Source: Bacilli bacterium
Lineage (GTDB): Bacteria; Bacillota_I; Bacilli_A; RF39; UBA660
Direction of reading: 5' to 3'
DNA length: 64,000 nucleotides
NCBI GenBank assembly: GCA_017435255.1
Contig: JAFSFI010000010.1
Span: forward strand, 170,483-234,482
A model generated the notes under the pieces. That model did no database searches. It saw only the letters and a list, made by a program, of their open reading frames with translations, and was not told the origin of the DNA. A program made the position numbers and the translations under genes. Below, one piece after another: positions 20,094 to 48,673 of this stretch (position 1 is the stretch's first letter; each line of letters starts with the position of its first letter).

Positions 20094-20166
20094 GATAGCA
20101 AATTTTTGCTATCTTTTTTTAGGAAATTAAATAATAAAAAGAGTATATATACTTGAGGTGAAATTT

Positions 20167-21042
20167 ATGAAGAGAAATTTATTTATAATTTTATTTCTTA
20201 TGGTTATTATTCCTATTCCAGTAAAGGGGGAAGAATTATACGTTAATCATGGACAGTATAATTATTCTGATACTTATATAGAGGAAAGAAAGGATTTAGA
20301 GGTAGAAGAAGTATTACAAAATGGTAAAACAATTTATAAATATAGAACTAGGGATTATATAATTATTCCTAAAGGATTAGTTATAGATAGAAAAAATTTC
20401 AATATATTAGATTATATTGATACAAATTTACCGTTAGAAGATATCACGATAACTGAATATTATGATTTGGATACTATGAATAAATGTAATGGTGCTATTG
20501 AAATTAAATATAAAAAAGCCATAATGGGTTTTGTTATTTATATAAATATAGATGACTATATTGAAATACCAGAACAAATAATAATAAATGATGATAATTT
20601 TGATATATGGGATTATATAGACACAAATATAGAAACAAAAGAAGAAATAAGTATTGAGGGTGCTTATGATTTAAGTGTTAATGGTGAATATAGTGTTATT
20701 GTTTCTTATGATGATATTGTTAAAGAAACAAAACTTATTGTGGACATTTTGAAAGAGGAAGAAAATGAAATAATAGAAGAAGATGAAATTAAAGATATAG
20801 AAGTAAAAGAAGATATCACTAATAAAACTGTCGAAAATAAAGAAACAATTACTTATGTAAATAATTATTACGAAACTAAAGATACTTGTAAAGATGTAGA
20901 ATATATAGATAGATTTGTTCCTGTTAATAACATAATAAAAAGTAAAGATAAAGATTATAATAAAGAATTTAGATATATTTCATATGGCTTTTATGGTGTT
21001 ATTACTATTATTTTGTCGATAATTGTCGTACGAAAAAAATAA
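20167..21042 (+). CDS. Secreted, C-terminally anchored protein with Ig-like repeat
   Basis: Signal peptide; duplicated FNILDYIDTN / FDIWDYIDTN segments; C-terminal TM plus RKK. Confidence 0.65.
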   Translation: MKRNLFIILFLMVIIPIPVKGEELYVNHGQYNYSDTYIEERKDLEVEEVLQNGKTIYKYRTRDYIIIPKGLVIDRKNFNILDYIDTNLPLEDITITEYYDLDTMNKCNGAIEIKYKKAIMGFVIYINIDDYIEIPEQIIINDDNFDIWDYIDTNIETKEEISIEGAYDLSVNGEYSVIVSYDDIVKETKLIVDILKEEENEIIEEDEIKDIEVKEDITNKTVENKETITYVNNYYETKDTCKDVEYIDRFVPVNNIIKSKDKDYNKEFRYISYGFYGVITIILSIIVVRKK

Positions 21043-21056
21043 GAATATTTGTCGAA
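21014..21056 (+). promoter_or_regulatory. Spo0A boxes upstream of spoIIAA
   Basis: TGTCGAT (21014), TGTCGTA (21024) and perfect TGTCGAA (21050). Confidence 0.7.
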
Positions 21057-21108
21057 TGTGTATAAAATAATAAAAGAGTGATCTATTATTTAATAGCGAG
21101 GAGATAAT

Positions 21109-21444
21109 ATGCTTAAAATAGAGTGTGAATATAAAAAAGGAATTTTATTTGTAAGACTAATAGGAAATATAAACAAATCGACAATAAAAGACATGGAAAT
21201 AGTAGATAATATGATTAATAAAGCAGGAATCAAGTATCTTCTTATTAATTTAGAAAAAGTAACAATTATTAATTATTGTGAGATTTCTAAATTAATTAAA
21301 AAATATAAACGATTAATAGGAGAAGATGGAAAACTTTTAATTTGTGGATATAGTAAGAATAAAATGAATTTAGAAATCAATAGTGTAGATAGTATATATT
21401 TATATGATAGAGAAGTTAGTGCATTTAATATAATTAATATTTAA
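21109..21444 (+). CDS. spoIIAA: SpoIIAA-like STAS anti-anti-sigma factor, degenerate
   Basis: ILFVRLIG..., INLEKV..., GKLLICG STAS pattern; position before sigF. The DSSG motif is replaced by NYCE. Confidence 0.72.
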   Translation: MLKIECEYKKGILFVRLIGNINKSTIKDMEIVDNMINKAGIKYLLINLEKVTIINYCEISKLIKKYKRLIGEDGKLLICGYSKNKMNLEINSVDSIYLYDREVSAFNIINI

Positions 21445-21454
21445 AGGAGCTAAT

Positions 21455-22099
21455 ATGGAACAAGATTATACAAATATGATTTACAAAATTGCGCATAAAT
21501 ATTGTTTTGGAAATGACTTTGAGGATTTGTGTCAGGTTGGTCAAATGGGATTGATAAAGGCATATGAAAAATTTAATCCTGATTTAGGTAGCGATTTTTC
21601 ATCATATGCATATATTTATATTCAAGGTGAAATTCTTAAATACATTAGAGAAAATAGAGTAATTAGAATCAATAAAGATTTGATAAAGCTAAATAAAGCA
21701 ATTTCTAACGCTAAAGAAGTTTTAACTCAAAAAATGATGAGAATACCAACAACAGAAGAGCTGGCACTTTTCTTAGAAATACCCGAAGAACAAATCACTG
21801 AAGCATATTTAGCTACAGAATATGTAAGAAGCCTAGATTATGAATTGAATGACGATGGTAAGGAATTAACTATGTATGATTCGATAAGATATGAGGAAAA
21901 AGGATATAGTGATAATATTTTAGACTTAAGAGAAGAGATAGAAAGATTGCCGGAGAACGAAAGAAGATTAATAATTGCAAGGTATTATGAAGATAAAAGT
22001 CAACAAGAAACCTCTAAAATATTGGGAATGAGCCAAGTACAAGTATCTAGAAATGAAACAAAAATATTAACTAAGCTAAAAAGCAAATTAGCTAGTTAG
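21455..22099 (+). CDS. sigF: Sporulation sigma factor SigF, N-terminally short
   Basis: EDLCQVGQMGLIKAYEKF, IQGEILKYIRE, SQVQVSR (SigF-type; SigG has SQAQVSR); synteny with spoIIAA and spoVA. Confidence 0.8.
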   Translation: MEQDYTNMIYKIAHKYCFGNDFEDLCQVGQMGLIKAYEKFNPDLGSDFSSYAYIYIQGEILKYIRENRVIRINKDLIKLNKAISNAKEVLTQKMMRIPTTEELALFLEIPEEQITEAYLATEYVRSLDYELNDDGKELTMYDSIRYEEKGYSDNILDLREEIERLPENERRLIIARYYEDKSQQETSKILGMSQVQVSRNETKILTKLKSKLAS

Positions 22100-22109
22100 T
22101 ATTTTTTTT

Positions 22110-22138
22110 GTATAAAATTTAACTAATTAGGAAAAATA
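22110..22138 (+). promoter_or_regulatory. SigF/SigG-type forespore promoter of spoVA
   Basis: GTATA-N15-GGAAAAATA. Confidence 0.65.
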
Positions 22139-22154
22139 TTTGTAGGTGATACGT

Positions 22155-22598
22155 ATGGAAAAAAAAGAATATAAAAAAATTGTTGATAGACACAAACCTA
22201 CGGAAACTAGAGTTCAGAATGCAATTATTAGTTTTTTAGTTGGTGGATTAGTTGGATTAATTGGACAAGGATTAATCGATTTTTATGCCAATTGGTTAGA
22301 AATATCTACCAAGGATGCATCTACTTTTATGATTGTTACTTTAGTCTTTGTAGCTTCACTATTTACTGCGTTGGGATTCTTTGATAAATGGGTAACCTTT
22401 GCTAGATGTGGACTTATTATTCCTATCACTGGGTTTGCACATTCGATGACAAGTGCAGGTATTGAATATCGCAAAGAGGGACCTATATATGGACTAGGTA
22501 TGAATATATTTAAACTTGCAGGTTCAGTAATACTTTATGGAATAGTTGCTGCGTGGATATTTGGAACTATAAGATATTTACTTTTAGGAGGAATATAA
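22155..22598 (+). CDS. spoVAC: Stage V sporulation protein AC
   Basis: FLVGGLVGLIGQ, PITGFAHS, IFKLAGSVILYG. Confidence 0.93.
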   Translation: MEKKEYKKIVDRHKPTETRVQNAIISFLVGGLVGLIGQGLIDFYANWLEISTKDASTFMIVTLVFVASLFTALGFFDKWVTFARCGLIIPITGFAHSMTSAGIEYRKEGPIYGLGMNIFKLAGSVILYGIVAAWIFGTIRYLLLGGI

Positions 22599-22599
22599 T

Positions 22600-23595
22600 A
22601 TGACATATAAATATAATGGTGTATACGTTGGTGGTTATTCTACGGTAGTTGGTCCATATGAAAAAGATGGACCTTTATCTAAAGGTTTTGATAAAAGTTA
22701 TGATAATTTATATAATGGAGAAGAAACTTGGGAACAAGCAGAAGTAAGATTACTTACTGATAGTATTGATATATTATTAAAAAAAATTCAAAAAGATAAA
22801 AAAAATATTGATGTATTAATATCAGGAGATTTACTAAATCAAGTTACATCATCTAGTTATGCAGCATTAAAGTTCGATATGCCTTTCTTTGGAATTTATA
22901 GTGCATGTGCATCAAGTGCTGAAGGTATTATCTTAGGAGCAAGTCTAATAGATGGTGGTAAAACAAAAAACTGTATTGCTGCAACCTCTTCACATAATAT
23001 GTCTAGTGAAAAACAATTTAGAAATCCAACCGAATACGGTGCTCCAAAACCCAAAACAGCTACCTTTACATCTACAGGAGGTGCTAGTGTTTATTTGACA
23101 AAAGATCCAGGGAAAATAAAAATAGAGTCCTCCACCATCGGTAAGGTTGTGGATATGGGACAAACCGATCCATTTAATATGGGCGCAGTAATGGCAGCAG
23201 CGGCAGGAGACACTATTTATGAACATTTAAAAGAGTTGAAAAGGGAACCGGATTATTATGATTTGATAATTACAGGCGACTTAGGAGTATATGGTAAAGA
23301 GATATTAATTGATTATATGCATACAGAGTATGGACTAGATATTAGTAATAATTATGATGATGCCGGTACGATGCTTTATGATTTATCAAAACAAGAAGAA
23401 GTAATGGCTGGTGGTTCTGGTCCCGTATGTAGTGCATTAGTAAATTACTCTAAAATATTTCCTAAGATAGAAAAAGGAGAATTAGATAGAGTGTTGTTTG
23501 TAGCAACAGGTGCATTATTTTCTCCAACTTTTGTATATCAACATGAAAACATTAATTCAATTGCTCATGCAATTAGTTTGGAGGCGGTAAGATGA
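22600..23595 (+). CDS. spoVAD: Stage V sporulation protein AD (DPA binding)
   Basis: GDLLNQ, EKQFRNPTEYG, NMGAVMA, TGDLG, AGGSG, HAISLE. Confidence 0.95.
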   Translation: MTYKYNGVYVGGYSTVVGPYEKDGPLSKGFDKSYDNLYNGEETWEQAEVRLLTDSIDILLKKIQKDKKNIDVLISGDLLNQVTSSSYAALKFDMPFFGIYSACASSAEGIILGASLIDGGKTKNCIAATSSHNMSSEKQFRNPTEYGAPKPKTATFTSTGGASVYLTKDPGKIKIESSTIGKVVDMGQTDPFNMGAVMAAAAGDTIYEHLKELKREPDYYDLIITGDLGVYGKEILIDYMHTEYGLDISNNYDDAGTMLYDLSKQEEVMAGGSGPVCSALVNYSKIFPKIEKGELDRVLFVATGALFSPTFVYQHENINSIAHAISLEAVR

Positions 23596-23942
23596 TTTAT
23601 GTTTATTCATTCTTGTTTTGTGGAATAGTGTCAATGATAGGACAAATAATATTAGATAATACTAAGTTGACCGCAGGGCACATTACCAGTTTGTTTGTTA
23701 TAATAGGAGCAGCACTAGATACATTTAGTATTTATGATAAAATAATAATGTATGTAGGTGGTGGAGCATTAGTTCCAATAACTTCATTTGGGCATTCTTT
23801 GATTCACGGAGCATTAGCAAAAGCTAGTGAATATGGAATAATAGGTATTTTAATGGGGATGTTTGATTTAACTGCATCAGGTATAACTGCAGCCATAATA
23901 TTTACATTTGTCTTTAGTTTATTCTTTAGACCAAAAAATTAA
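23592..23942 (+). CDS. spoVAE: Stage V sporulation protein AE(b)
   Basis: IGQIILD, GALVPITSFG, FRPK terminus. Confidence 0.9.
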   Translation: MIYVYSFLFCGIVSMIGQIILDNTKLTAGHITSLFVIIGAALDTFSIYDKIIMYVGGGALVPITSFGHSLIHGALAKASEYGIIGILMGMFDLTASGITAAIIFTFVFSLFFRPKN

Positions 23943-27620: not shown

Positions 27621-27728
27621 CAAAGTTGTAAAAATAATGTCAAACAAAGAGTTTACAAAAGTATATATGTGTAAAATGCATATATATTTTTTTCCTTGTA
27701 TGATATAATTTTCTTGGATGTGAATATA

Positions 27729-28751
27729 ATGGAGAGTATATATAATAAGAGTTTTAGTGATTTAGAAGAGTATTTTGAATCTATTGGAGAAAAGAAGTAT
27801 AAAGCAAGCCAAGTATATGAGTGGCTTTATGGAAAAAGAGTTGAATCTTTTGATGAATTTACTAATGTAAAAAAGGATGTTGTTGCAAAAATTAAAGAAG
27901 ATTTTTCAATTAATAGATTGGTTATCGAACAGGTAGAAAAAGATGTAGAAGTTCATAAATACTTGTTTGAACTACCTGATGGGAATCACATTGAAGCAGT
28001 TCTTATGATGCATGATTATGGAAAAAGTTTATGCATATCTAGTCAAGTCGGATGCAACATGGGATGTAAATTTTGTGAATCGGGACGTCTTAAAAAAGTT
28101 CGTAATTTAGATGCTAGTGAAATGGTTTTGCAGGTTTTACAAATAGAAAAAGAAATCAATGATAGAATTAGTCATATAGTTATTATGGGAATTGGAGAAC
28201 CCTTTGATAACTATGATAATGTTATTAAATTTGTAGAAATTGTAAATCATGCTAAAGGATTACAAATTGGTTCGCGTCACATTACTATTTCAACTTGTGG
28301 GCTAGTTCCTAAAATAAAGGAGTTTTCTTCTTTGCCATATCAAGTAAATTTGGCAATATCTTTACACGCGGCTACTAATGAGGTTAGAAATAAAATAATG
28401 CCAATTAATAAAGTATATCCAATTGAAACATTAATCGAATCTATAAAAGAATATATAAATAAGACCAATAGAAGGGTAACTTTTGAATATATAATGTTAG
28501 AAGGAATAAATGATAGTAAGGAAGACGCTATTAACTTATGTAACCTGTTGAAAGGAATAAATTGTTATGTTAATATCATTCCTTATAACGAAACAAATAA
28601 TATTGGATTTAAAAGAAGTAAAAAGGATACTATTTTACAATTTTATGATATAATTAAAAGAAGAAATATCCAAGTAACAATAAGAAGAGAGTTTGGTAGC
28701 AATATAAGTGCTGCTTGCGGACAACTTAGAGCTAAGAAGGAGAGTGAATAA
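27729..28751 (+). CDS. rlmN: 23S rRNA m2A2503 methyltransferase
   Basis: CISSQVGCNMGCKFC, MGIGEP, AACGQL. Confidence 0.95.
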   Translation: MESIYNKSFSDLEEYFESIGEKKYKASQVYEWLYGKRVESFDEFTNVKKDVVAKIKEDFSINRLVIEQVEKDVEVHKYLFELPDGNHIEAVLMMHDYGKSLCISSQVGCNMGCKFCESGRLKKVRNLDASEMVLQVLQIEKEINDRISHIVIMGIGEPFDNYDNVIKFVEIVNHAKGLQIGSRHITISTCGLVPKIKEFSSLPYQVNLAISLHAATNEVRNKIMPINKVYPIETLIESIKEYINKTNRRVTFEYIMLEGINDSKEDAINLCNLLKGINCYVNIIPYNETNNIGFKRSKKDTILQFYDIIKRRNIQVTIRREFGSNISAACGQLRAKKESE

Positions 28752-28753
28752 TA

Positions 28754-29494
28754 ATGAAATCATTTTATTTAACGGATGCTGGAAAAGTGAGAAGTCATAA
28801 TGAAGATAGTGTTATAATTGTTAAGAATAAAGATGGGGACTATTTGATGGCTGTAGCTGATGGTATGGGAGGACATTCTGCTGGGGAAGTTGCTTCTAGT
28901 ATCGCTATTAGTTATTTAGGTAAAAGTTTTAATGAAAATTTCTCTAATATGGAAAAAGTAAAAGCCGTTAATTGGTTAAGAGAAAGTGTTTTAGATATTA
29001 ACGAGCTTATATTTAGTTATGTTAAAGAACATCCAGAATCACGTGGTATGGGAACTACATTAGTAGTAGCGCTTGTAACAAAAGATTATATATTGTTTGG
29101 TAATATCGGAGACTCTTCAGGTTATGTTATAAAAGATAGTCATTTACACAAGGTAACTTATGACCATACGCTTGTAAATTTATTATTGAAAGCAGGAGAA
29201 TTAACGGAAGAAGAAGCAAAAGATCATCCTAAGAAAAATGTTCTTATGAAAGCTCTAGGGGCAAATGATCCAATTGATATAGACATATTTGACTGTGATA
29301 CTGATATTTCATCAATATTGTTATGTAGTGATGGACTTACTAATATGTTAGATAATGAGCAAATCGAGAAGGTATTATTAAGTGAATTAGATATAGAAGA
29401 TAAAGTAATAAAATTAATTAGAAAAAGTAATAATCGTGGGGGAACGGACAATATATCAGTAGCTTACTTAAGTTTAGAAGAAAGTGGTGAATAA
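28754..29494 (+). CDS. prpC: PP2C Ser/Thr phosphatase
   Basis: RSHNED, VADGMGGH, GMGTT, NIGDS, LCSDGL, GGTDNIS. Confidence 0.93.
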   Translation: MKSFYLTDAGKVRSHNEDSVIIVKNKDGDYLMAVADGMGGHSAGEVASSIAISYLGKSFNENFSNMEKVKAVNWLRESVLDINELIFSYVKEHPESRGMGTTLVVALVTKDYILFGNIGDSSGYVIKDSHLHKVTYDHTLVNLLLKAGELTEEEAKDHPKKNVLMKALGANDPIDIDIFDCDTDISSILLCSDGLTNMLDNEQIEKVLLSELDIEDKVIKLIRKSNNRGGTDNISVAYLSLEESGE

Positions 29495-29496
29495 TA

Positions 29497-31296
29497 TTGA
29501 TAACAAAGGGGCAAAAAATTAACGATAGATATGAAATTATTAAAAGTATTGGCGAAGGTGGTATGGCTAATGTCTATCTAGCAAGAGATGTTATTCTAGA
29601 TAGACGAGTTGCAATAAAGATTTTAAGAGGAGATCTTGCTAATGATGATAAGTTTATTAGAAGGTTTCAAAGAGAAGCTTTATCAGCGTCATCACTATCT
29701 CATCCTAATATTGTAGAAATGTATGATGTAGGAGAAGATAATGGTAATTATTATATAGTAATGGAATTTGTTGAAGGTAAAACTTTAAAACAATATATGA
29801 AAAAAAGAACAAATGGCCATCTTACTATTAGTGAAGCTGTTGATATAATGTTACAACTTACTGATGGAATTTCACACGCTCATGATAGTTACATTATTCA
29901 TAGGGATTTAAAGCCACAAAACATCATGATTCAAGACGATGGGAAAATTAAAATAACCGATTTTGGTATTGCGATGGCACTTAATTCTACACAGTTAACA
30001 CAAACCAATTCTGTAATGGGAAGTGTACATTATTTACCGCCAGAACAAGCAACTGGAAAAGGTTCTACAATAAAATGCGATATTTACTCGATGGGAATTC
30101 TTTTCTATGAACTTTTAACAGGGATGTTACCTTTTAAGGGGGAAAATGCTGTAGAAATTGCTTTAAAACACATGAAAGAGCCTCTTCCAAGTGTTAGAAA
30201 ACATAATCCTAGCATCCCACAAAGTGTAGAAAATATTATTTTGAAATCAACTGCTAAGAATCCTAAAAATAGATATAACGATGTAAAAGAAATGCATAAT
30301 GATTTGAAAAGAGCTTTGGATCCAGATGTTCTTGAACAAAAGAAATATGTTTATCCACACCCTGAACTTGAACTTGATGACACTAAACCGATGAAAGCAA
30401 TAAAAAAAGAAAAAAAAGAAGAAACTGTTAAAGATGAGGATAATATAGAAGATACTGGTGACTTTGTTAAAGAAATAACTAACGAAAAGGACAAGAAATT
30501 TAATATTGTTATATGGGTTTTATCCATAATATTATTTCTTATAATTGGAGGAATGTGTTTTGTATTTTTTGTTTTACCATCTATGACCGCTGTACCTAAT
30601 ATAACGGTACCCGATGTATCGGGATTAAGTGTTGTAGACGCTGAGGATTTATTAATTCAAAAAGGGTTTACGGTTGCTGATGAAACGGAAAAAGTAGCAA
30701 GTGAGGAATTTGATGCTGGGGAAGTAATAAAGACTAGTCCTAGAAAAGGAAGTACTAGAAAAAAAGGAACTAAGATTACTTTATACGAATCAATTGGTAG
30801 TGAAGTATTTGAATTAGAAGATTATGTTGGCAAAAATTATATAGAAGTTCAAACTTTATTAACAAATGTATATGGATTAAGTGTAAAAATTGAACCAAAA
30901 GAAATAGAAATTACTGATGATACAGATGAACAAGCAATTATTGAGCAAAGTATTCCTGCGGGAACAGAAGTAAAAAAAGGTGATGAAATAATTCTTTATA
31001 TTCCGGAGATAGTAGATGAATATCCGGACTTTATAGGAGAAGAATGGACTGTTGCTGATGTTCAGGCATTTTGTGAAAAGAATAATATTAAACTAGATGT
31101 GAAAGAAGTAGAAACAAATGAATACGCACCTGGAAAGATTTTCTATCAATCTAGAACCGGAAGAATTGTATCTGGAGTTACATTGACAATAAAGGTTGCC
31201 AAAGAAATATCTTTACCACCTGAAATTAATCCAGGACCAACAGAAGGAGATAATAACAATTCTACAACAGATACTGATAACAATGAAGATAATTAA
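29497..31296 (+). CDS. prkC: PASTA-domain Ser/Thr kinase
   Basis: GEGGMANVY, HRDLKPQN, DFGIA; TM; PASTA repeats (VPDVSG...). Confidence 0.95.
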   Translation: MITKGQKINDRYEIIKSIGEGGMANVYLARDVILDRRVAIKILRGDLANDDKFIRRFQREALSASSLSHPNIVEMYDVGEDNGNYYIVMEFVEGKTLKQYMKKRTNGHLTISEAVDIMLQLTDGISHAHDSYIIHRDLKPQNIMIQDDGKIKITDFGIAMALNSTQLTQTNSVMGSVHYLPPEQATGKGSTIKCDIYSMGILFYELLTGMLPFKGENAVEIALKHMKEPLPSVRKHNPSIPQSVENIILKSTAKNPKNRYNDVKEMHNDLKRALDPDVLEQKKYVYPHPELELDDTKPMKAIKKEKKEETVKDEDNIEDTGDFVKEITNEKDKKFNIVIWVLSIILFLIIGGMCFVFFVLPSMTAVPNITVPDVSGLSVVDAEDLLIQKGFTVADETEKVASEEFDAGEVIKTSPRKGSTRKKGTKITLYESIGSEVFELEDYVGKNYIEVQTLLTNVYGLSVKIEPKEIEITDDTDEQAIIEQSIPAGTEVKKGDEIILYIPEIVDEYPDFIGEEWTVADVQAFCEKNNIKLDVKEVETNEYAPGKIFYQSRTGRIVSGVTLTIKVAKEISLPPEINPGPTEGDNNNSTTDTDNNEDN

Positions 31297-31313
31297 AAAA
31301 TAATGGGGGGTTT

Positions 31314-32141
31314 ATGCAAGGACAAATAGTTAAAATACTTAGTAATTTATATACAGTAAATAATGATGGTAATCTTTATGAATGTCATAGTAGAGGTAAA
31401 TTTAGAAATAATAAAATAACTCCTATGGTAGGAGATTTTGTAAAATTTGATGCCGAAAACAAATATATATTAGAAATATTACCAAGACTAAATCAACTAG
31501 AACGTCCATTAGTTAGTAATGTTGATCAGGGATTAATAGTAACTAGCTTGAAAGGCCCTGATTTTTCTACTAATTTGTTAGATAAACTTTTAGTTGTGAT
31601 GGAATATCATAAAATAAAACCAATTATATGTTTAACAAAAAGTGATTTACTAAATAATAAAGAAAAAAAGGAAATCAAAAAATATGTTAAATATTATAAA
31701 TCTTTAGGATATAAAGTTTTATATAATACAAATTTATTTAGAATAAAAAGATTATTTAAAGGGCATACCACTGTTTTTACTGGACAAAGTGGAGCTGGTA
31801 AAAGTACATTAATTAATATGCTTGATAAAAAATTGAACTTAGAAACAGGGGAAATATCTAAAGCTTTAGGTAGAGGAAGACATACTACCAGGTTTGTTCA
31901 ATTAATTGAACTTTATGGTGGCAAAGTAGTAGATACTCCAGGGTTTTCTATGATTGAATTTAATGGTATGACTAAAGAAGATATTAGAGATTCATTTATT
32001 GAATTCAAAAAATATCCATGTCCTTTTAAGGATTGCATGCACCTAACAGAAAAAGAGTGTAGGGTAAAAAAGGAAGTAAAAAACAATAACATTTTAGAAT
32101 CGCGTTATGAAGATTATAAAAAATTCATGGATGGTAGGTGA
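31314..32141 (+). CDS. rsgA: Ribosome small subunit-dependent GTPase
   Basis: TKSD, GQSGAGKS, GRHTTR, DTPG, CPFKDCMH zinc finger. Confidence 0.95.
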   Translation: MQGQIVKILSNLYTVNNDGNLYECHSRGKFRNNKITPMVGDFVKFDAENKYILEILPRLNQLERPLVSNVDQGLIVTSLKGPDFSTNLLDKLLVVMEYHKIKPIICLTKSDLLNNKEKKEIKKYVKYYKSLGYKVLYNTNLFRIKRLFKGHTTVFTGQSGAGKSTLINMLDKKLNLETGEISKALGRGRHTTRFVQLIELYGGKVVDTPGFSMIEFNGMTKEDIRDSFIEFKKYPCPFKDCMHLTEKECRVKKEVKNNNILESRYEDYKKFMDGR

Positions 32142-47974: not shown

Positions 47975-48673
47975 ATGTTTTTATCTTTTTTAGAGTTAAT
48001 CAAAAGCCTGATGTTTTTTACTGCGTCATATTCTAATAATATTTTTCCTGATCCGCTAACAAAAGAAGAGGAAGATAAATATATAGAAAAAGCAAAATTA
48101 GGAGATAAAGAGGCAAGAAGTAAATTAATAGAACATAATTTGAGACTGGTTGCACATATTGTAAAGAAGTTTGATTATAAAAATGTTGATCAAGATGATT
48201 TAATTAGTATTGGAACAATAGGCCTTATAAAAGGCGTTGACTCATATTCTGAAAAGCATGGAACTAGGATAACAACCTATTGTGCCAGATGCATTGAAAA
48301 CGAAATTTTGATGTATTTTAGAAGTAATAATAAGAATAATAAAAACATTTCAATTAATGAATCAATAGGATTCGATAAAGAAGGAAATGAAATTACTATT
48401 TTAGATGTTTTAAAAATGCCAAAGCCAGACTTTGCGGAGGAAATACAAGTTAAAGATAATATTGCGTTGTTAAAAGAATATATTAAAATATTAAATCCAA
48501 GAGAAAAAGAAATATTAATCAAAAGATACGGATTAAATAATACAAAAGAACAAACCCAAAAAGAAATTGCAAAAGAGATGAAAATATCTAGAAGTTATGT
48601 TTCTAGAATAGAAAAAAGAGCCCTTACTAAGATTTTAAGAGAATTTATAAAAAACAAAAAATGCAGTTATTAA
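47975..48673 (+). CDS. sigK: Pro-sigma K (uninterrupted)
   Basis: Pro-sequence then SYSNNIFPDPL; EHNLRLVAHIVKK, DLISIGTIGLIK, ENEILMYFR, SRSYVSRIEKRAL. Confidence 0.92.
   Translation: MFLSFLELIKSLMFFTASYSNNIFPDPLTKEEEDKYIEKAKLGDKEARSKLIEHNLRLVAHIVKKFDYKNVDQDDLISIGTIGLIKGVDSYSEKHGTRITTYCARCIENEILMYFRSNNKNNKNISINESIGFDKEGNEITILDVLKMPKPDFAEEIQVKDNIALLKEYIKILNPREKEILIKRYGLNNTKEQTQKEIAKEMKISRSYVSRIEKRALTKILREFIKNKKCSY

Follow-up and report, generated by a model that had tools for sequence, protein, structure and literature searches.

What controls the sporulation sigma factor SigF when the partners that are expected to hold and release it are missing? The question is raised by a locus in a 64,000-nucleotide stretch of a Bacilli genome from the order RF39 (GenBank assembly GCA_017435255.1, contig JAFSFI010000010.1, positions 170,483 to 234,482 of the forward strand), which we call the window and in whose coordinates positions are given unless another contig is named. 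Here the gene for a small STAS-domain protein runs almost directly into sigF, and an earlier note on this DNA had described it as a spoIIA operon without spoIIAB, in which SpoIIAA has also lost the serine that is phosphorylated in Bacillus. Following up that description, we find that the STAS protein is a SpoIIAA orthologue with a tyrosine in the place of the serine, that the kinase and anti-sigma factor SpoIIAB and the phosphatase SpoIIE appear, by homology, to be absent from the whole order, and that the components of the endospore sigma cascade are all still encoded. The switch was probably dismantled in the ancestor of the order, which would leave the STAS protein as an accessory remnant.

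Results

A SpoIIAA orthologue without the canonical serine

Exactly 10 nucleotides (nt) separate the TAA stop codon of the STAS gene (21442-21444) from the ATG of sigF at 21455, and this spacer holds an AAAGGAG ribosome-binding site. Neither the list of open reading frames (ORFs) nor the sequence itself offers a frame between the two genes that could encode a SpoIIAB of about 146 amino acids (aa), which bears out the description of a spoIIAA gene followed after 10 nt by sigF with no room for spoIIAB.

By sequence profile, fold and position before sigF and spoVA, the STAS gene is an orthologue of spoIIAA. Its product scores just above the cut-off of the Pfam STAS model (23.9 against 22.6 bits), and its best NCBIfam model is SpoIIAA (TIGR02886), at 38.8 bits, short of the equivalog cut-off of 114.75. 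The best sequence match of the family profile in the PDB is the SpoIIAA chain 1th8_B (E = 2.5e-26). The AlphaFold2 model of the protein has a STAS fold, with a predicted local distance difference test score (pLDDT) of 80, and its top Foldseek matches are the SpoIIAA chains of SpoIIAA-SpoIIAB crystal structures, the best being again 1th8_B with a template modelling score of 0.78.

Residues 46-59 of the protein read INLEKVTIINYCEI, just as the earlier note had written them, and within this segment N55, Y56, C57 and E58 align without a gap to D57, S58, S59 and G60 of SpoIIAA in three independent alignments: a MAFFT alignment of 23 orthologues that includes four canonical FMDSSG outgroup proteins, an alignment of the family profile to PDB 1th8_B, in whose chain Ser58 follows Asp57, and an hmmalign alignment of 83 sequences. 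Tyr56, encoded by the TAT codon at 21274-21276, caps helix 56-70 in the AlphaFold2 model, the structural place of the phosphoserine. The claimed loss of the phosphoserine therefore holds in every register that we tried, none of which puts Ser or Thr at position 58. From the profile register and the fold match it follows that the STAS gene is a spoIIAA orthologue without the canonical phospho-acceptor, and its product is predicted to be a SpoIIAA descendant that is no longer phosphorylatable at the canonical serine.

The same position varies widely in the order: among 79 orthologues it is Ser in 8 and Thr in 3 (11/79), and it is Glu in 13, Leu in 10 and Lys in 8. The flanking residues of the loop are mostly kept (Asp in 66/79, Gly in 64/79); in the window's genus both have been lost as well. 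The STAS orthologues have conserved their fold and a motif in the N-terminal strand, KGILFVRL.G, and the 54 database homologues of the protein are of similar length, 52 having 102-114 aa and the other two 77 aa, which cover 59-69% of the query.

Searches for SpoIIAB, SpoIIE and other regulators

The window's genome (1.0 Mb in 15 contigs, 28% GC, 88% complete) has neither of the two proteins whose presence would mark a partner-switch module, SpoIIAB and SpoIIE. The sole match to the SpoIIAB model, at 38 bits, lies inside a 427-aa protein with HisKA and HATPase_c domains. We considered this membrane protein (G000:C1:90523-91806), whose gene has a triple cluster of Spo0A-box-like sites upstream, as a replacement kinase and rejected it, because the combination of HisKA and HATPase_c is that of an orthodox histidine kinase; possibly it is a sporulation kinase. 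At E<=10 the genome contains no match to the anti-sigma kinase family PF13581 and none to Gin/CsfB (PF10764) or Fin (PF10955). The sole match to the SpoIIE model is Stp1, a 246-aa PP2C phosphatase encoded beside the PASTA kinase Stk1. Stp1 is the only PP2C protein found in the genome, and its gene forms part of a housekeeping operon, rlmN-stp1-stk1(PASTA kinase)-rsgA, at 27696-32141 of the window, in which stk1, for the sole Ser/Thr kinase of the lineage, occupies 29497-31296.

No second credible STAS protein is found in the genome either: one further match (C5:92868-93023; 13.3 bits, E = 0.047) was set aside as a low-complexity frame of 68 aa without STAS motifs, and a hydrophobic residue followed by DS[ST]G occurs in no open frame of at least 80 aa. 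The genome search thus turned up neither a spoIIAB elsewhere nor a canonical DSSG STAS protein to go with it.

The comparison with relatives covered 41 genomes, including 24 of the same family and outgroups at the level of the class. SpoIIAB exceeds its cut-off in 0 of the 24 genomes of the family and in four of the class-level outgroups (152-190 bits), and these same four are the only relatives with strong, full-length SpoIIE matches. The four outgroups (G029, G030, G033 and G038) share the gene order and the spoIIAA, sigF and spoVAC families of the window locus, but their SpoIIAA proteins have the FMDSSG motif and a SpoIIAB of 143-149 aa is encoded between spoIIAA and sigF. One of them, G030, has a similarly small genome of 0.9 Mb and the arrangement AA(FMDSSG)-AB-sigF-spoVAC, so that small genome size is not in itself enough to cause the loss.

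A wider sample of the order, drawn evenly from a larger group, comprised 301 genomes from 127 genera, of which 299 are 90% complete or more. At E<=1e-20, 0 of the 301 have a SpoIIAB match, and single-contig genomes are among them. SpoIIE was likewise found in 0 of the 301, apart from one weak PP2C match (G258; 37.4 bits, to the phosphatase domain only, in a frame of 625 aa). As far as homology searches can show it, the whole order lacks both SpoIIAB, the kinase and anti-sigma factor, and the phosphatase SpoIIE. The matched loss of a kinase and its target residue that the earlier note had proposed is real, and it is wider than proposed, for SpoIIE is gone too and the loss spans the order.

SigF and its control elements

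The sigF product contains sigma-70 regions 2, 3 and 4. Pfam Sigma70_r2 spans residues 4-68 and the frame is unable to begin earlier, so that there is no N-terminal extension and SigF begins at region 2, as had been noted. Its best NCBIfam models are SigBFG (TIGR02980; 177.1 bits against a cut-off of 234.35) and SigF (TIGR02885; 156 against 321.45 bits). The SigF proteins of the outgroups that have SpoIIAB also score low on the SigBFG model (84.6-199.5 bits), so that a low score does not in itself mark the loss of SpoIIAB. SigG is encoded by a separate gene (G000:C1:98465-99124; 245 bits, over its cut-off).

Upstream of the STAS gene, TGTCG sites begin at 21014, 21024 and 21050 and form one of just three triple TGTCG clusters in the 1.0-Mb genome. 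The sequence TTTGTCGAA, about 60 nt before the STAS start codon, is common to 19 of 21 orthologous loci, outgroups included, and at least one TGTCG lies within 130 nt upstream in 19/21. We take these sites to be 0A boxes, by their likeness to the 0A-box consensus. Since the 7-mer TGTCGAA by itself is not enriched in the window (3 observed, 3.1 expected), the case for control by Spo0A is made by the clustering and the conservation of the sites. On these two grounds the Spo0A boxes claimed by the earlier note stand, and the STAS-sigF operon is presumed to be under the control of phosphorylated Spo0A (Spo0A~P). The two other triple clusters in the genome lie directly upstream of the orphan HisKA/HATPase membrane kinase mentioned above (G000:C1:91822-91842), a candidate sporulation kinase, and between dnaN and a small gene that precedes recF, close to replication-origin genes (G000:C8:55799-55819).

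The SigF-type promoter that had been seen before spoVA stands in part. Of nine loci compared within the genus, 8 keep the GYATA of the element before spoVAC, and we take the element to resemble sigma-F/G (forespore-type) promoters; a strict regular expression for the sigma-F promoter, written from a presumed consensus, matches 13 sites genome-wide, none of them at the spoVAC element or upstream of spoIIR or sigG. In the window's genus the sequence before spoVAC has the form GYATA-N15/16-GGnAAAATAT, and in other genera and one outgroup a CATAnTA-like -10 element stands there instead (loci L023, L027, L030, L033, L026 and L028 were compared). The forespore sigma factor that reads spoVA may have changed between genera, if the presumed consensus sequences hold.

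The STAS gene across the order: linkage, selection and loss

The STAS profile is found in 232 of the 301 genomes of the order and in 104 of the 127 genera; at a match threshold of 1e-45, a sigma factor of the SigF/G class is found in 271 genomes and is missing from the other 30. The STAS gene stands directly before sigF in 18 of the 19 loci first examined and in 58 of those from 60 further genera, 76/79 in all. The spacing ranges from -29 to +36 nt, and 12 of 58 loci have a 4-nt overlap. In one exception (G050, locus L080, G050:C7:22405-24037) an intact sigF frame at positions 627-1268 overlaps the STAS gene at its end, yet none of the start codons ATG, GTG and TTG is present near the point where the frame begins, which could mean a non-canonical start or the loss of the start codon. 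In another (G060) an unrelated gene follows the STAS gene, and that genome has no SigF/G match. A 388-aa gene that looks by eye like metK lies between STAS and sigF in one genus (L029, G009:C28:16765-20103), whose sigF is at G009:C28:20106-20753.

Within the genus, the median ratio of nonsynonymous to synonymous substitution rates (dN/dS; NG86 method, 36 pairs) is 0.247 for STAS, 0.135 for SigF and 0.052 for SpoVAC, ratios that are rough, dS being near saturation (median 0.94). The values point to purifying yet relaxed selection on the STAS protein.

Loss of the STAS gene is also common. With SigF/G in 271 genomes, STAS in 232 and four STAS genomes lacking the sigma factor, at least 43 genomes must keep SigF/G without a detectable STAS protein. 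All of the STAS-less genomes that were examined (12 of 12), which belong to seven genera, have a solitary sigF without a STAS frame upstream of it, and in three of those seven genera other species still carry STAS. SpoIVA exceeds its cut-off in 5 of 5 STAS-less genomes tested, in four of them as one unbroken frame. In the fifth (G075) spoIVA is split into two parts that lie about 2.6 kb from each other (G075:C2:72632-76745), with one TGA in the first, and this could reflect an inserted element or a broken gene. STAS-bearing lineages conserve 38 SigF columns to at least 85%, and 0 of these 38 are relaxed in 12 STAS-less ones. This is a weak test, because the STAS-less lineages represent few clades and may have lost the gene only recently.

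The sporulation programme that is retained

The window's genome encodes all components of the endospore sigma cascade: Spo0A (268.8 bits), SigF, SigE, SigG, SigK, SpoIIR and SpoIIGA. The sigK gene is uninterrupted at 47975-48673 of the window (NF004471; 309 bits, over its cut-off), no skin-like insertion being seen in its frame, and SpoIID and SpoIVA (691 bits) are both over their cut-offs. Judged from these genes, there is no general decay of the sporulation programme. It follows from the intact cascade that some other control of SigF would have to exist, or that the confinement of SigF known from Bacillus does not apply here.

In the sole genome of the order's second family (G025), which has both STAS and SigF, a single TAG stop interrupts the match to spo0A (G025:C28:9933-10674); a pseudogene, an error in the sequence or read-through could each explain it.

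Other features of the locus

The features of the region are listed in Table 1. For the 294-aa protein encoded upstream of the STAS gene, the Pfam and NCBIfam searches gave a weak Big_3 match (15.7 bits, below the cut-off) and no NCBIfam match. Genes that by eye are of similar build occur upstream of STAS in many genera of the family (L015, L017, L019, L024, L027, L030 and L031), and some relatives have a gene for a DacF-like D-Ala-D-Ala carboxypeptidase, either further upstream of STAS or in place of the 294-aa-type gene, a neighbour that forms part of the synteny behind the assignment of STAS to spoIIAA. The true start of spoVAC is likely the ATG at 22155, which would match the orthologues beginning with MEKKEYKK. 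After spoVAE come scpA and scpB.

Table 1. Features of the STAS-sigF-spoVA region, in window coordinates.
Feature	Position	Strand	Basis
Unnamed protein, 294 aa, predicted signal peptide and C-terminal membrane anchor	20158..21042	+	ORF
Three Spo0A-box-like sites (TGTCGAT, TGTCGTA, TGTCGAA)	21014..21056	+	Sequence; overlap the end of the upstream gene
SpoIIAA orthologue, single-domain STAS protein, 111 aa, Tyr56 at the phospho-Ser position	21109..21444	+	ORF, Pfam, NCBIfam, alignments, model
sigF, SigB/F/G-class sporulation sigma factor, 214 aa	21455..22099	+	ORF, Pfam, NCBIfam
Promoter-like element GTATA-N15-GGAAAAATAT before spoVAC	22110..22139	+	Sequence, conservation in the genus
spoVAC	22146..22598	+	TIGR02838, 156.7 bits
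spoVAD	22600..23595	+	NF006160, 411.9 bits, over cut-off
spoVAE (SpoVAEB-type)	23592..23942	+	TIGR02839, 128 bits

Discussion

The locus resembles the partner switch of Bacillus and Geobacillus (PDB 1TH8, 1THN, 1TID, 1TIL and 1AUZ) in its SpoIIAA-orthologous STAS protein, in the class of its sigma factor and in the putative Spo0A boxes upstream. It differs from that system in having no SpoIIAB, no SpoIIE and no phosphorylatable serine, the position being Tyr56 here and variable across the order, and its SigF is some 20-40 aa shorter at the N-terminus. Other STAS/GHKL switches, among them RsbV-RsbW-SigB (PDB 6M36 and 8IH8), share the STAS fold and occupy ranks 6-16 of the Foldseek matches; unlike the window locus, switches of the RsbV-RsbW-SigB type keep both the kinase/anti-sigma factor and the phosphorylated Ser or Thr.

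The explanation that we prefer, with a probability of roughly 0.6, is that the switch was dismantled in the ancestor of the order, that the STAS protein is an accessory remnant of it, and that SigF is governed by Spo0A boxes together with some control that we do not recognise. The ancestor would have lost SpoIIAB and SpoIIE, and the other parts of the endospore programme would have stayed in place. The STAS protein would have survived as a small derivative of SpoIIAA, usually co-transcribed with sigF and often encoded in overlap with it, and would be an accessory and not an essential gate, having been deleted repeatedly in sub-lineages that keep sigF. SigF would be made under the control of Spo0A~P through the conserved 0A boxes and no known anti-sigma factor would restrain it, the searches for SpoIIAB, Gin/CsfB and Fin having all been negative; its timing or forespore confinement would come from transcription and from a factor that is not recognisable by homology, or would be looser than in Bacillus. 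We favour this explanation because selection on the STAS protein is relaxed, because the phosphorylated position is unconstrained and because the gene has been deleted repeatedly. The earlier note had offered two readings, that SigF is compartmentalised in a different, undescribed way or that the switch is decaying within a minimal sporulation programme, neither of which can be proved computationally; we lean to the second as far as the switch is concerned, as dismantled with an accessory STAS protein, and not as regards the programme, which does not appear to be decaying.

The main rival is that the orphan STAS protein acts on SigF directly and without phosphorylation, for example as a stoichiometric holder or chaperone, in which case one protein would have replaced a three-protein switch. 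We think this rather doubtful, even though the protein is present in 232 of the 301 genomes, is nearly always encoded immediately upstream of sigF at the short spacings given above (with the 4-nt overlap in 12/58), is under purifying selection (dN/dS 0.25) and has kept its fold and its strand motif. At least 43 genomes keep SigF/G without it, with sigF alone in 12/12 of those examined; SpoIVA is over its cut-off in 5/5 STAS-less genomes, unbroken in four; four genomes have STAS and no SigF/G match; and none of the 38 conserved SigF columns is relaxed where STAS is missing, though this last is weak evidence from few clades. A prediction of the SigF-STAS complex gave an interface score (ipSAE) of 0.00 in two runs without controls, which counts neither for nor against binding. 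A different possibility is that a non-homologous anti-sigma factor encoded elsewhere took the place of SpoIIAB and that the STAS protein antagonises it by binding alone. In B. subtilis, SigF becomes toxic and sporulation is blocked when SpoIIAB is missing, and this argues for some brake here as well; moreover, most members of the order keep the I-D-x-x-G-I frame of the loop, as though a surface for binding had been retained. Against these stand the lack of any extra conserved gene at the locus in 79 loci, the failure to find a GHKL-type anti-sigma factor of family PF13581, Gin or Fin, the fact that in the window's genus the loop has lost its Asp and Gly too, and the dispensability of the STAS protein itself in many lineages, so that we hold this possibility to be improbable.

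That the whole sporulation programme is a non-functional relic, the missing partners being merely the first losses, would fit the reduced size of these genomes (0.6-1.6 Mb), the 30 of 301 that lack SigF/G, and the commonness of sporulation loss in related orders that is described in the main text of a recent survey (PMC10868615). It is nonetheless very improbable, given that Spo0A, four sigma factors, SpoIIGA, SpoIIR, SpoIID, SpoIVA (691 bits) and SpoVA are intact and strongly conserved, that the dN/dS of SpoVAC is 0.05 and that the pattern is stable across at least 100 genera. An artefact of assembly or binning, in which spoIIAB and spoIIE exist but went unassembled, might be suspected in a genome in 15 contigs that is 88% complete, but it is effectively refuted by the continuous sequence of the STAS-sigF junction, by the same junction in 76 of 79 independent genomes and by the count of 0/301 for SpoIIAB, single-contig genomes included.

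Several points weigh against a dismantled switch with an accessory STAS protein. The absence of SpoIIAB and SpoIIE rests on homology, by which a non-homologous anti-sigma factor would be undetectable. The window's own genome is 88% complete, and the order-wide result comes from the sample of 301 genomes. Several members of the cascade fall below their cut-offs in the window's genome despite strong E-values, among them SigE (294 against 349 bits, E = 2.4e-88), SpoIIGA (124 against 210 bits, E = 3.8e-36) and SpoIIR (139 against 152 bits, E = 6.6e-41), and spore formation in this uncultured lineage is predicted from its genes. The four STAS genomes without a SigF/G match at 1e-45 (G054, G060, G062 and G070) fit neither a role dedicated purely to SigF nor simple decay, and gaps in the assemblies could be responsible. 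A dN/dS of 0.25, rough as these ratios are, together with retention in 104 of 127 genera would mean that the STAS protein is not neutral, and to call it a remnant may undersell a real function. The toxicity of unrestrained SigF in B. subtilis belongs among these points too.

Part of the pattern is already in print. A gene-content survey of RF39, RFN20 and ML615J-28, based on the presence and absence of KEGG orthologues (PMC10868615; Microb Genom 2024), reports in its main text that in RF39 spoIIAB and spoIIE are reduced or absent while spoIIGA and other genes are kept, and predicts for this order spores with a different regulation. The window's genome matches the pattern described there, with spoIIGA and spoIID present and spoIIAB and spoIIE absent. 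The name spoIIAA has 0 occurrences in the main text of the survey, whose supplementary tables may list it. What is added here is the extension of that published absence to an order-wide variant of the sigma-F module; our full-text literature searches found no description of a retained non-phosphorylatable STAS protein, of a direct STAS-sigF junction or of repeated STAS loss.

SpoIIAA, SpoIIAB and SpoIIE are counted among the universal core components of endosporulation. SpoIIE has a double role: it activates sigma F, and it takes part in positioning the asymmetric septum. We suggest, tentatively, that an order of endospore formers may run the cascade without an anti-sigma kinase and without SpoIIE, either with the STAS protein gating SigF directly or with a confinement that is free of anti-sigma factors; if that is true, asymmetric division would also proceed without SpoIIE. 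If the lineage really sporulates, a large gut-associated order would constitute a natural experiment on which parts of the forespore switch are dispensable, with a series of intermediates that runs from the full module of the outgroups through an orphan STAS protein with a D-x-x-G loop and a STAS protein without the loop, as in the window's genus, to no STAS protein at all, and these intermediate forms would be testable in B. subtilis.

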